A stretch of 64,000 nt of DNA from Planctomycetota bacterium (GTDB lineage Bacteria > Planctomycetota > UBA1135 > UBA2386), in assembly GCA_965223545.1 (NCBI GenBank), contig OZ245006.1, positions 3,168,001 through 3,232,000 on the forward strand. Reading direction: 5' to 3'. The position numbers and the translations under genes were made by a program. The stretch's first letter is position 1. Each line of letters starts with the position of its first letter. Below are positions 1 through 4,339 of this stretch, piece by piece. Under the pieces are notes generated by a model that saw only the letters and a list, made by a program, of their open reading frames with translations, was not told where the DNA came from and made no database searches.

Positions 1-2
1 GT

Positions 3-416
3 GGAATCGATCCGGCGCTCGGCATCGCCGCGACGCACGAGCCGGGGCGCTGGCGGTTCAACCTCGCGACCTGGTACCGCGTGCACACCGACTCGGACGA
101 CGACGGGTTCCGGCGGGGCGACCGCTGGATCGTCGAGGCGGCTGCCGGCAACCGCTTCTGGCTCGAGCCATACCCCGGCCCGTTCATGCGGCTGGATGTC
201 GCCTTGCGCTACTACCACGAAGACCACGACCGGTTCCGGGGGGCCCTGCCCAACACCGGCGGCGAGCGCGCCACGACCACGGTCAACCTCGCCTTCCGGC
301 CGCAGCCGGCGCTCGACTTCCAGGTCGCCGTCGAGGTGCCCCTGTGGCAACGCCTGGCGGGCACCCAGCTCGGCGAAGATTGGGCGCTCGACCTGACCTT
401 CGGCTACCGATTCTGA
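3..416 (+). CDS. Outer-membrane beta-barrel 'transporter'-type protein, C-terminal part (5' end outside the window)
   Basis: Frame is open from position 3 (GIDPALGIAATHEPGRWRFNL...). Alternating amphipathic strands and a C-terminal aromatic signature LDLTFGYRF. Confidence 0.65.
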   Translation, partial: GIDPALGIAATHEPGRWRFNLATWYRVHTDSDDDGFRRGDRWIVEAAAGNRFWLEPYPGPFMRLDVALRYYHEDHDRFRGALPNTGGERATTTVNLAFRPQPALDFQVAVEVPLWQRLAGTQLGEDWALDLTFGYRF

Positions 417-480
417 GGCGCGCCCGATTCGACCGCGCCCGGGGTTGCTTTTTGTCCCGAGTCCTGCACATCTGGGCTGC

Positions 481-1014
481 ATGAAGTCGCCGAGCATCCC
501 GATCGCCGTCCTCTTGCTCGCCGGGGCCTGCGCCGCTCCGGGTCAGCCGATCTCCGCGCAGCCGGACGACTTCGCGTTCGTCGAGGTCCAGCTCCGCGGT
601 TGAACTTGAAACGAGGAGCTTCTGGGTCTGCAGAAGCTCTTCGAGGGCCTGTACGGTCCCACCCCGCAGATTGACCTCGACCTGCAGATCGCGCGCGCGC
701 GGGTGCCCACTCCGATCGAGCTGGACTTCACCGCGCTCGCCGACGGCGTCGTGCGCAACAACGTCGGCGTCGACGGCATCCGCCTTTGGGCTCGCGGTCG
801 ACTCGAGGCGGATCACTTCGTGTTCGACGCCACCGGCCAACGGCTGCCACTGGCCGCACCTGCGCCAGGGGCCCGCGGCCCGTGGTTCGAGTTTGCGGTG
901 ACCCACTTCGAATCGACACGATCGCCTCGCTTGCAGTGGCTAGCGGATTCGCACACCGCCGGTGCACCGGCGATGGCGCCACGATCCGAAGGTCCCAGCA
1001 CGGCGCCTCGCTGA
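481..1014 (+). CDS. Putative selenoprotein lipoprotein with U-T-U motif, HMA/MerP-like fold (177 aa if both TGA codons are read as Sec)
   Basis: ATG at 481 gives MKSPSIPIAVLLLAGAC (signal peptide plus lipobox). In-frame TGA at 601 and 607 (…VEVQLRG-U-T-U-NEELLGLQKLFEG…). Same frame as ORF 703..1014. SECIS-like hairpin at 612-643. Confidence 0.75.
612..643 (+). promoter_or_regulatory. Bacterial SECIS-like stem-loop
   Basis: CGAGGAGCTTCTG-GGTCTG-CAGAAGCTCTTCG: 13-bp stem (one G-U pair) with apical loop GGUCUG, starting 2 nt after the second in-frame TGA. Loop resembles the E. coli fdhF SECIS (…GCAGGUCUGC…). Confidence 0.75.
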
Positions 1015-1093
1015 GCGCGACTGGAAAGACGGGGGCGCACGGCGCATTCTGCACTGCGAATGCACTGTTCGTTTTTGCGAAAGACAAACTGAG

Positions 1094-1681
1094 ATGAAGA
1101 TTTCCGAGCTGATGTCCCAACCGGTCGTGTTCTGCCGACCGGAGGATTCGCTGGCGCGCGCCGCCGAACTCATGTGGAACCACGACCTCGGCTGGCTGCC
1201 GGTGGCCAACGCCGGCGGATCGTTGGTCGGGGTCGTCACCGACCGCGACGTTTGCATGGCCGCATGGCTGCGGGATCGCCGGCTGCACGAGCTGCAGGTG
1301 GGCGGCGTGATGAGTCAGGCCGTGACCACCTGCAACACCGAGGACACGGTCGAGGCCGCCCACGAGATGCTGCGGCGCGAGCGCCTGCACCGCCTGCCGG
1401 TGATCGACGGCGAGGGCAACCTCACCGGAGTCGTCACCATCAACGACCTCGCGCACCACGGCGCCGCGGGACCGGTGCACGATACGCTCTGCTCCGTGAG
1501 CCAACCGCGCAACGCCCCGGAACGCACCGTGCCACTGCCGAGCCCGGCGTCCAAACCAGCCGTGAAGCGCGCCAAGAGCACCACGAGCGCGAGTTCCACC
1601 AAGCAGACCAAGGCCAAGACCGCGAAGCCGACGCGTTCCACCGCAAAGACGACAAGCCGTCGTGCGGCGAAGAAGAAGTGA
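1094..1681 (+). CDS. CBS-domain pair protein with basic Lys/Ala/Thr-rich C-terminal tail
   Basis: MKISELMSQPVV…LPV…GVVTDRD and RLPVID…GVVTINDL CBS motifs. Tail KPAVKRAKSTT…RRAAKKK. Confidence 0.85.
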   Translation: MKISELMSQPVVFCRPEDSLARAAELMWNHDLGWLPVANAGGSLVGVVTDRDVCMAAWLRDRRLHELQVGGVMSQAVTTCNTEDTVEAAHEMLRRERLHRLPVIDGEGNLTGVVTINDLAHHGAAGPVHDTLCSVSQPRNAPERTVPLPSPASKPAVKRAKSTTSASSTKQTKAKTAKPTRSTAKTTSRRAAKKK

Positions 1682-1825
1682 CCTCGGCGCTCCAGGTCTA
1701 GGGGAGCCCCCGAGATCGCGGGCGGGGATCCCCGCCAGAACCGCCCGCCGCGGGGTTGCCGGTCGACTCCACGGCCCCATTTGGTAGGTTGCGGGGCTGC
1801 CTCAAGAGCCGCAGGACCCTCACCG

Positions 1826-4339
1826 ATGACCCGACGATCCCGCCCGCGCAAGGGAAGCGCCAAGCGCTCGCGCCAGCGCAAGACCGAAGCCGATCAAGGC
1901 GCCGCCGCGCCGCAGCCCGACGAGCTCGAGCCCATTGACGAGCTCGAGCCCATCGAGGAGCTCGAGCCCATCGAAGAGCTCGAATCGCTGCCGCTCCTCG
2001 AAGAGGAGGACGAGCCCGCCGCCCGCCCGCTGTCGGACGACGGGCCGGTGCAAGTGCGCCACGAAGTGCTCGAGGGCAATGCCGACTACGACGCGCGATT
2101 GGCGATCACCGTCGCCGCAATGGACAAGAGCGACGTTTGTGATGCGCTGACCAAGCCGCTGCGCAAGGCGGTGCGTCGGCTGGGGTCCGCGCTTCGGTGG
2201 CAGCGCGTGCTGGTCGAGTTCGACGGCGACGCGCTGATCCCCGGTGCCGCCAAGGACGTGGTGCGCGACGCGTTGGAGCCCGCGAGCCCGCTCTTGATCG
2301 CGGTGCAGCGCGGCTATCCGGACGAGATCGTGCTGCAGGGGACCTTGCCGCAGTGCACCCTGCGCATCGAGCCCGTCGGTGGTGACCAGAAGCGGCTGCG
2401 CGTCGATGTCGACAACCGCGATCTCGAGCCCGAAGACCTGGGAATCGTGATGCGGTCCGAGCTGGAGCAACTGCAGCGCCGCGCCACCGACACCGCGTTC
2501 GAGTTCGGGTTCTCGGGCCCGCTCCCGCTCGACGAGCTGCGCGGTTCACTGCGCGACGCGCTGGCCGAGGCCGGGGCATCGCGCGTCGCGATCGACGAAG
2601 GCGAGCGCGAAGACCTGTTGCACGATCAGGAGCTCGCGGCGCGCATCGTCGTCCAAGACAGCGCCAGTAGCGACGCCGACGTCGTCGTCGCGATGGAACC
2701 GTTCGACAACGAAGAGCGCACTCTGCAGGCCCTTCAGCTCGTGCTCCCCCGCCGAGCGACCCAGCTGACGAGCCGCCGGGTCCGCGTGCAGGTCGCGCGC
2801 CGGTCGCCCTCCCCCACCGAGCTGCTCGAGCTGAGTGGCCAGGCGGCGGCGATGCAGATGACCCGGCTCGAGGTGGTGCCGCCGGACGGCGTCGGTGACG
2901 TCGTCTGGCCACCCGCTCTGCAGGTATCCCGTCAGGGTGACGCCATGACCGTGGCCATCGCGGGCGCCGACCGCGACCGCGACGCGCGCTTCCTCGCGCT
3001 GGCGCGCGAGATCCAGCCGCTGGCGGCCGAGGTTCGCGGCCGCGCACTGACGCTCGACTGGCCGGCGGACGACGTCATCGACGATGCGGTCGAAGCGTGC
3101 GTCCGCGATCACGTGGTGCCCCTGGCCCCCGCCAGCGTCGCGTGCACGATCGCGGGAGCAGCCCGAGAGCCACTGTGGCCGCTGCCGCTGAAGCTGGAGG
3201 CGCGCGACGGCGGCGTCGAGCTCACCGTCGACACCGACGCTGGCAAGCCGGCGGAGCTGGTCCGCGCCGCCGAACGGCGGCTGCCGGCGCTGGCCGACCG
3301 AGTGCGCGACGCCGCCGTCACCATCGCGGTTCGGGGCGAGGCCAGCCCATCGCGCACTCTGCGCCGGACGCTGGTCGACGCGCTGGAACAAGCCGGGGCG
3401 CAGCGTCTGGCAATCTCCGACCACGGCACGACCGATGTGCTCCTGCCGCCGCTGTTGACCATCAAGGACAGCGGCGACGGGGTGCTCGACGCCCTCGTGC
3501 AGCGCGCCGATCGCACGGCCGAGCAGATCGCCAACGCGTTGCAACGCGAGCTCGAGCCGCACGGCAATCCGCGCCAGCTCACCGTCCGGCTGCCCGCCGC
3601 CGATCACGACGAGGCGTTGACGCAAGCCCTGATCGAGTTCGGCGTCGGCCGCATCGCGTTGGCGGGAGACCCCGCGGTGCAGATCCACCCCCCGTTGTTC
3701 GGCGCAGTCGAGCGCGGCGACGGTGTGTTGCAGATCAGCGCCAACCCGACGACCCACGACGAGGGCCTGCAGAGCCAGGTGGAGCGCGAGCTGCGGTCGA
3801 TCCTCGAAAGCGGGACGCTGCACGACTTCGACGTGACGGTGCGTTGGCCCGGCGTGCAGAAGCCGCTCGAAGGCGCCCCACTCCAGTTGTTCGATCAGCT
3901 CGTCGCCGCCGGCCCCGCCACCGTCCGAGTGCAGAGTGGCGACGGCGACCCGGTCGCGCTCTACCCCAAGCCGGTGCGCATCCCGGTGGTCGACCTGGGC
4001 GCCCGCCCCGGAGCGACCCCGCCGATGCTCATGCTGGGTGTCGAGTGGACGGACGATGCAGAAGAGATCGCCGAAACCGCGCAGGCGCTGACGGCGCGGG
4101 GCGAGGCGCTCGCCGGCCACCGCGTGCTGGTCGCCTTCCAGCGAGCCGGCGCCGACCGCGCCGGACCTGCGGACCACCCGCTGGTCACCGCGACCCGCGA
4201 GGCGCTGGCGCCGAGGGTCGCCGCGCTGCTGCAGTTCCAGCCGGCGAGCCGGCGCGCGCCGGCCCACTTCGAGGTGCTGCACTCGGCGATCGAGGGCCTC
4301 GCCGTCGGGACCAAGATGCGGGACCCGCGCAAGACGTAG
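1826..4339 (+). CDS. Large hypothetical protein with about 8 internal ~90-aa alpha/beta repeats
   Basis: Long GC3-rich ORF with an acidic N-terminal linker. Repeated units end in (V/L)(W/L/H/Y)P(P/L/K). Confidence 0.8.
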   Translation: MTRRSRPRKGSAKRSRQRKTEADQGAAAPQPDELEPIDELEPIEELEPIEELESLPLLEEEDEPAARPLSDDGPVQVRHEVLEGNADYDARLAITVAAMDKSDVCDALTKPLRKAVRRLGSALRWQRVLVEFDGDALIPGAAKDVVRDALEPASPLLIAVQRGYPDEIVLQGTLPQCTLRIEPVGGDQKRLRVDVDNRDLEPEDLGIVMRSELEQLQRRATDTAFEFGFSGPLPLDELRGSLRDALAEAGASRVAIDEGEREDLLHDQELAARIVVQDSASSDADVVVAMEPFDNEERTLQALQLVLPRRATQLTSRRVRVQVARRSPSPTELLELSGQAAAMQMTRLEVVPPDGVGDVVWPPALQVSRQGDAMTVAIAGADRDRDARFLALAREIQPLAAEVRGRALTLDWPADDVIDDAVEACVRDHVVPLAPASVACTIAGAAREPLWPLPLKLEARDGGVELTVDTDAGKPAELVRAAERRLPALADRVRDAAVTIAVRGEASPSRTLRRTLVDALEQAGAQRLAISDHGTTDVLLPPLLTIKDSGDGVLDALVQRADRTAEQIANALQRELEPHGNPRQLTVRLPAADHDEALTQALIEFGVGRIALAGDPAVQIHPPLFGAVERGDGVLQISANPTTHDEGLQSQVERELRSILESGTLHDFDVTVRWPGVQKPLEGAPLQLFDQLVAAGPATVRVQSGDGDPVALYPKPVRIPVVDLGARPGATPPMLMLGVEWTDDAEEIAETAQALTARGEALAGHRVLVAFQRAGADRAGPADHPLVTATREALAPRVAALLQFQPASRRAPAHFEVLHSAIEGLAVGTKMRDPRKT
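1919..1984 (+). repeat. In-frame 18-bp tandem repeat, about 3.7 copies (D/E-ELEPI)
   Basis: GACGAGCTCGAGCCCATT / GACGAGCTCGAGCCCATC / GAGGAGCTCGAGCCCATC / GAAGAGCTCGAA. Confidence 0.9.

Follow-up and report, generated by a model that had tools for sequence, protein, structure and literature searches.

Where two TGA codons stand one codon apart in a frame that is otherwise open, it must be asked whether the frame is a single gene and, if so, by what means the two codons are decoded and what the product might do. Such a frame is found near the beginning of the window (by which is meant the whole 64,000-nucleotide stretch of planctomycetal DNA that was analysed), where an initial annotation had proposed a hidden lipoprotein carrying two selenocysteine (Sec) residues. 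The features that bear on the gene and its product are these:

1–416, + strand: outer-membrane β-barrel gene, 3′ part (PF13557/COG4313-like)
481–1014, + strand: selenoprotein gene, 177 amino acids, two in-frame UGA codons
481–531, + strand: putative lipoprotein signal peptide with lipidated Cys17 (codon 529–531), from a hydrophobic stretch and the conservation of Cys17
568–789, + strand: HMA/CopZ-like domain, residues 30–103 (model pLDDT 85.9; fold and profile matches)
601–603, + strand: UGA 1, Sec41, at the Met position of the G-M-x-C-x-x-C loop (profile register)
607–609, + strand: UGA 2, Sec43, at the first Cys of the HMA CxxC (profile register)
616–618, + strand: Glu46, at the second HMA Cys position, which is Sec in three- and four-Sec relatives
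778–951, + strand: C-terminal five-stranded β domain, weakly OB-fold-like (model pLDDT 92.4)
1044–1063, + strand: weak terminator-like hairpin 3′ of the gene (two found against 0.7 expected)

One frame with two UGA codons

The frame opened by ATG481 comprises 177 codons and ends at TGA 1012–1014; its sole internal stops are TGA 601–603 and TGA 607–609, and the shorter open frame 703–1014 is contained within it, just as the initial annotation had supposed. A sequencing error had been named as a possible source of the TGAs, and on this point the assembled contigs from three of four sequencing runs differ nowhere from the window over positions 300–1100 (the fourth reaches 818–1067 only), although the three agreeing runs share one study, which is probably the source of the assembly. 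The gene is present in one copy in its own genome. It had also been foreseen that gene callers would split it, and so they do: a protein library search gave 197 matches, and most of the 150 listed are pieces cut at the UGAs, either starting 3′ of them or stopping 5′ of them. At the level of sequence, the hydrophobic N-terminus and a Cys17 that is unchanged in all 17 aligned proteins support the proposal of an exported lipoprotein; the lipobox of the window gene, A-G-A-C, is slightly atypical, most homologs having L-A-[AG]-C. No promoter-like site was found at the locus. Another weak terminator-like hairpin (430–447) lies inside the 64-nucleotide gap between the barrel and lipoprotein genes, a gap that is much shorter in many homologs, and on the other side a gene for a two-CBS-domain protein with a Lys/Ser/Thr-rich tail (window 1094–1681, + strand) is a neighbour that is not conserved.

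Homology continues on both sides of the TGAs, and homologs are found that have either TGA or Cys at both positions. U-T-U occurs in 16 of the 16 homologs found among 60 relatives (identity 27–57%), while the position of UGA 1 is TGA in all 41 rows of the family alignment. Among 401 genomes of the phylum there were 29 matches, comprising 27 TGA forms and two Cys forms. Cys stands at both UGA positions in P0035 and P0118, at that of UGA 1 also in P0009–P0011 and P0023, and at that of UGA 2 in P0154; the motifs seen at the site in full-length library homologs are G-C-S-C, C-N-C-K-D-C, C-T-S and L-T-C-N-L-C, and three homologs (P0019, P0108 and P0113) have no ligands there at all. A further 45 metagenome matches were picked by a pattern that fixed both TGAs, and so they are not counted towards TGA conservation; one of them (L071) is a chance match, and two (L062 and L066) look chimeric. 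A scan of genome contigs employed a Cys-only pattern and gave one chance match, so it is uninformative as to TGA forms beyond the phylum.

The search of the host genome for selA, selB, selC and selD that the initial annotation called for was successful, SelA, tRNA-Sec, SelB and SelD all scoring above their cut-offs. The host selD itself carries one in-frame TGA, and since 10 of 24 AhpC/TSA matches in the genome also carry one, the host uses Sec widely; in each of these ten genes the single TGA is at a redox motif, and the genome is a selenoprotein-rich one. Over all genomes tested, 40 of 41 TGA-form hosts have selA, the exception being a 73% complete genome, while in the phylum set selA is present in 27 of 27 TGA-form hosts against 287 of 401 genomes overall (kin among the TGA hosts are not independent). 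A changed genetic code is excluded because TGA is the commonest terminator, closing 3246 of 4706 long open stretches, and because the tRNA-Trp anticodons are CCA; a tRNA-Sec(UCA) is present. A reading of the TGAs as stops, as errors or as codons for Trp (as in a pseudogene, a pair of peptides or a changed code) is scarcely credible for these reasons and because both are kept across many families with continuous homology and Cys, not Trp, replaces them in homologs under the standard code, even though most database entries are split pieces and one JGI record (P0002) gives W-T-W. Taken together, the machinery, the conserved TGAs, the two-sided homology and the Cys homologs make Sec insertion at both UGAs, as originally proposed, close to certain.

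The ligand loop and the number of selenocysteines

The initial annotation had placed the UGAs in the metal-binding loop of an HMA/MerP-like fold. Models and profiles support both the fold and the placement in the loop, but the two Sec residues are not the CxxC pair. In the predicted model, residues 30–103 adopt the ferredoxin-like HMA fold, with fold-match scores that are middling: the top Foldseek rows for the N-domain are PacS-N, CCS and CopZ (best E 0.006, none at E ≤ 0.001), and a structure comparison (VIA) with CsoZ gives Z 7.2 and rmsd 2.2 over 68 aligned residues, the top 17 rows all being HMA-type. A profile search also matches HMA chains, while the window protein has no match to PF00403 over the Pfam cut-off, and among its homologs only the distant P0154 passes. 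The HMA motif G-M-x-C-x-x-C is absent, with G-U-T-U-N-E-E in the same register, and the assignment is accordingly revised to U41 at the Met, U43 at the first Cys and Glu46 at the second Cys; it should be borne in mind that the evidence for this register is partly circular, as profile alignment A4 includes one canonical HMA protein. Because some homologs have Cys at the Met position, a Met → Cys → Sec route is plausible. For the C-terminal domain the structure search gave no clear match, the best Z being 4.7 and the rows mostly OB folds.

In comparison with HMA, CopZ and MerP domains (PF00403; TIGR02052), the fold of residues 30–103 and the position of the ligand loop are alike; like MerP, the protein is apparently exported, and distant relatives of its gene occur in MerR/MerT-type clusters. 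The differences from HMA metallochaperones are that the window protein has U-x-U-x-x-E where they have M-x-C-x-x-C, that it adds a (predicted) lipid anchor and a C-terminal β domain, and that its fixed partner is an outer-membrane barrel.

The number of Sec residues on the loop varies widely. Members further removed show U-x-x-U, C-x-x-U or just one Sec, relatives with C-x-C and U-x-U-x-x-U also occur, U-T-U-N-D-U is found in one genome, and U-V-U-U-E-U, with four Sec in six residues, is found in 8 of 23 genomes of one other family (f62), the four-Sec genes being 33–71% identical to the query. These f62 genes (L152–L159) have adjacent UGA-UGA codons, one genome (G270) has two copies, and in six of the eight the loop of hairpin 1 (see below) is shifted to +33.

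Within the accessible portion of PMC13188914, Table 1 of that work covers 119 selenoprotein families, none with a UxU motif and with at most 2–3 Sec. Two families described there, NF041115 (UxxU) and NF045683 (MerT/CopZ), resemble the window protein in having Sec in an HMA-type loop and two Sec per protein, but it matches neither of them and differs in spacing, architecture and gene context; it falls short of the NF041115 cut-off of 95 bits, and even the distant U-x-x-U relatives score 32–34. A precedent for UxU is the rhodanese-related protein of Olavius symbionts (PMC1976440, as excerpted), which likewise has two Sec one residue apart but has a different fold, and whose UxU is one form of a one-Sec family. 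Elsewhere on the host contig (6555553–6556270, + strand) there is a second hidden multi-Sec lipoprotein gene (L170; homologs L176–L178), with three TGA codons, in which an HMA U-x-x-U domain is fused to a thioredoxin U-x-x-C domain; it adjoins MerR- and MerT-like frames, scores 54.8 bits against NF041115 (below the cut-off), and, as in its homologs, there is one SECIS-like hairpin, at +36.

Pfam and NCBIfam searches with the window protein returned no family match. The selenoprotein family is real, conserved, multi-Sec, of HMA fold and accompanied by a barrel partner, and it is absent from the libraries searched. No description of it was found in the literature, and it is probably new, with the proviso that recent selenoprotein databases or supplements could still hold it.

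Two hairpins downstream of the UGA codons

Bacterial Sec insertion is usually pictured as involving one UGA and one hairpin 16–37 nt downstream, and the bSECIS model specifies a G at loop position 1–2, a loop of 3–9 nt, a stem of 4–16 bp and this same 16–37 nt distance from the UGA (PMC13188914, accessible part). Two candidate elements follow the UGAs of the window gene:

612–643, + strand: hairpin 1, SECIS-like, 13 bp, loop GGUCUG at 625–630
645–659, + strand: hairpin 2, SECIS-like, 5–6 bp, loop at 650–654 with G651-U652

Hairpin 1 is as the initial annotation described it, with 13 base pairs, a GGUCUG loop and a loop G/U that falls at +26/27 when counted from UGA 1 and at +20/21 when counted from UGA 2. 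The 60-nt stretch that contains it has a folding energy of −30.2 kcal/mol (z −4.7), none of 200 shuffles being as stable. If the loop is taken as 4 nt, its G626 is separated from UGA 1 by 22 nt and from UGA 2 by 16 nt (21 and 15 nt with a 6-nt loop), and for both UGAs the hairpin conforms to the bSECIS model (PMC13188914, in part). Such a hairpin alone is not rare, since stems of at least 10 bp with a G[GU] loop occur at 17 of 2377 TGA-NNN-TGA sites in the host genome, and the case rests on conservation. G+25, G+26 and U+29 are unchanged in 41 of 41 genes, though the same bases are also fixed by the Gly-Leu codons; a perfect G[GU]-loop hairpin 1 is found in 34 of 46 family genes, against 14.6 expected under synonymous recoding. 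In a fixed register 64.5% of cells are paired, a slide of +3 being equally good, and the register moves between subgroups. An in-frame hairpin with a small G[GU] loop is shared with the fdhF SECIS of E. coli and with the consensus for bSECIS elements (PMC8659212 and PMC13188914, so far as their available portions go); the window gene differs from fdhF in having two adjacent hairpins and in that hairpin 1 has no equivalent of the bulged U17 (PMC8659212, likewise). An Rfam search over window positions 1–2000 gave three chance matches, none at the hairpins.

The initial annotation had one SECIS serving both UGAs, a view that is probably incomplete, as there is a second hairpin, missed at that time, that is better conserved and tracks with Sec use. 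Its loop is 41 nt from UGA 2 and 32 nt from the Glu46/Sec position. Over +45 to +59 (window 645–659), 95.1% of 205 cells are paired in 41 genome-derived genes, and two-sided change is seen at four of the five pairs, a result equalled by none of 500 shuffles and far above all the slid controls. Both bases of the pair +46/+58 are first positions of codons, so that compensation there alters amino acids, the alternatives being Gly/Pro, Ser/Ser (from different codon families) and Arg/Ala; in 46 genes its states are C-G (20), G-C (9), A-U (9), G-U (3) and mismatch (5), and a tree from which those codons were left out requires nine changes among eight states. Of the 46 family genes, 43 have a G[GU]-loop hairpin at +42 to +64, where synonymous recoding would predict 13.2; among controls it occurs in 3 of 29 selD and 2 of 10 AhpC/TSA genes. 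If the loop G is required at +50/51, the hairpin is found in 41 of the 46 family genes, in all 16 distant Sec forms and in all nine three- or four-Sec genes, compared with one of six all-Cys forms (the register of four Cys forms being unsure by one codon); these hairpin counts include 16 weaker matches, either full-length or two-TGA, and omit some 20 short ones, most of which have no TGA within a long frame. In one close pair, L213, with a single Sec at the second Cys, has a hairpin 32 nt downstream, and the all-Cys L209 does not.

The 41 nt that separate loop 2 from UGA 2 lie beyond the 37 nt of the bSECIS model, to which its loop and stem do conform (PMC13188914, available portion). Ten of the 16 distant Sec forms lack a G[GU]-loop hairpin at +22 to +35 (most have a plain hairpin there), so that the UGA at the first Cys, 41 nt away, is apparently served by hairpin 2 as well. 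Loop 1 of L089, at 7 nt, is too near to the third UGA, and loop 2, at 32 nt, falls inside the 16–37 nt range of the model (PMC13188914, in part). Hairpin 2 is probably the primary SECIS of the clan, and it is likely that it acts as a SECIS in the window gene as well, in tandem with hairpin 1.

It may instead be argued that hairpin 1 decodes both UGAs alone, hairpin 2 being a leftover from a U-x-x-U ancestor, a pausing element or one that protects the mRNA. Loop 1 lies at 22 and 16 nt, both inside the range of the model (PMC13188914, in part), in four of four unrelated U-x-x-U HMA–thioredoxin genes from the same genomes a single hairpin (at +36) serves two UGAs, and in 4 of the 46 family genes hairpin 1 is present alone; against this, 11 have hairpin 2 only, hairpin 2 is the better conserved (41 against 34 of 46), and, unlike a relic, it has been maintained through changes that alter amino acids. 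Such an arrangement, while worth serious consideration, is thus unlikely. Hairpin 2 is missing at +50/51 from five of the 46 genes, and L142 lacks both hairpins in perfect form.

In the tandem scheme that we prefer, both UGAs would be decoded as Sec by SelB. Hairpin 2 would be the older SECIS of the clan, for the CxxC positions (32 nt from the second and 41 nt from the first), and hairpin 1, when folded, would shorten the gap between the first-Cys UGA and hairpin 2; it may have begun as a spacer and gained its SelB-type G[GU] loop where Sec entered the Met position. No report of tandem bacterial SECIS elements was found in the papers searched. A covariance-model scan of the host genome for a second family-type element found none, and a look-alike of the two-UGA start at contig position 7152312 (E 0.06, no hairpin) is probably a chance occurrence. 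Many selD genes (L102–L131 and L006) have a short hairpin at +4 to +16 after the UGA, plus a SECIS-like one near +31.

The barrel partner and the probable role of the site

The barrel encoded upstream has 304 amino acids, the usual PF13557 length; its gene starts 5′ of the window at contig position 3167502, and it matches PF13557 with E 2e-10 and 41.6 bits against a cut-off of 22. In 80 of 88 loci (which are partly redundant) the gene is preceded by a barrel homolog in the same orientation, and of the eight without one, six have 301 nt or less of upstream DNA and two are Cys forms. Across the loci there is no other general neighbour within flanks of 1.5–2.5 kb, nor, within the same flanks, is there any recurrent metal regulator or transporter near the U-x-U subfamily; in barrel alignments no conserved Cys, His or Met stands out. 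The window gene would follow the outer-membrane barrel gene in a module of two and encode a lipid-anchored protein of HMA fold, and whether the two proteins associate physically may be regarded as evenly balanced. The channels Pput2725, SphA and TcpY (PMC4493636, available portion) are, like the upstream partner here, PF13557 members, but theirs is a role in the uptake of hydrophobic organics, whereas the barrel of the present module is paired with an HMA lipoprotein. Four all-Cys relatives (L095, L101, L208 and L210), with C-x-x-C-x-x-C, have no PF13557 barrel match and share an unannotated neighbour; feoA/feoB or fur is found near L101 and L210.

Six distant barrel-plus-HMA loci (L209, L213, L215, L219, L220 and L222) are preceded by a MerR-family regulator, for which the MerR model TIGR02051 is best in four of the six, all below cut-off, and the L209 locus goes on with DUF2703 and a MerT-HMA fusion. 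These genes at distant loci, rather than anything beside the U-x-U subfamily, are the main ground for supposing a soft-metal role, and binding of a metal such as Hg or Cu is fairly likely. The selenolates of Sec41 and Sec43 would replace the Met and the first Cys of the HMA loop, and a soft metal ion (Hg(II), Cu(I) or Ag(I)) or an organometal is what they would most probably bind, at the envelope and beside the barrel. An organometal is possible because characterised COG4313 barrels import hydrophobic organics and not metals (PMC4493636, in the part available).

Alternatively, the U-x-U could be a redox diselenide, in an envelope reductase or isomerase acting on a substrate admitted by the barrel. 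An exposed loop bearing two Sec with a single residue between them would suit this, as would the loss of the second HMA Cys from most members, the lack of adjoining metal genes in the subfamily, and the C-x-U and U-x-C redox motifs of Table 1 of PMC13188914 (in part). It is nevertheless distinctly unlikely: the fold and register are those of a metallochaperone, the presence in relatives of three or four Sec on that loop suits coordination better than one redox pair, MerR-family genes precede the distant relatives, and no recurrent electron-donor partner is found within flanks of 1.5–2.5 kb. A module that handles selenium or sulfur species, the Sec cluster being a selenium store, a carrier or a sensor of supply (the last because a full-length product requires two to four Sec insertions), is quite improbable; up to four Sec in six residues and Sec-rich hosts are in keeping with it, but the gene is unlinked to the sel genes (selA and selD at 1.26 Mb, the lipoprotein gene at 3.17 Mb) and Cys forms with the same architecture exist.

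Computation establishes the frame, its conservation, the machinery, the fold, the register, the gene pairing, the covariation of the hairpin and its tracking with Sec. We incline, on the whole, to the complete account of a two-gene module, two UGAs decoded as Sec, tandem hairpins and a soft-metal site; that the clan at large uses two hairpins jointly to decode two to four UGAs within six codons, so as to build an all-selenium soft-metal clamp at the outer membrane, seems about as probable as its opposite. If true, bacteria would here have solved the problem of inserting several Sec processively, and a single protein would contain more Sec than the 2–3 given for the 119 families in PMC13188914 (available portion). 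The family forms a natural series of 0, 1, 2, 3 and 4 Sec on one loop, with matching RNA structures, so that loop mutants offer a direct test of how clustered UGAs are decoded, and the tandem element, if it works, would be useful for producing multi-Sec proteins. The family also places Sec at the HMA Met position, links a PF13557 barrel to the probable handling of soft metals, and adds to the list of selenoproteins a family that gene callers split.
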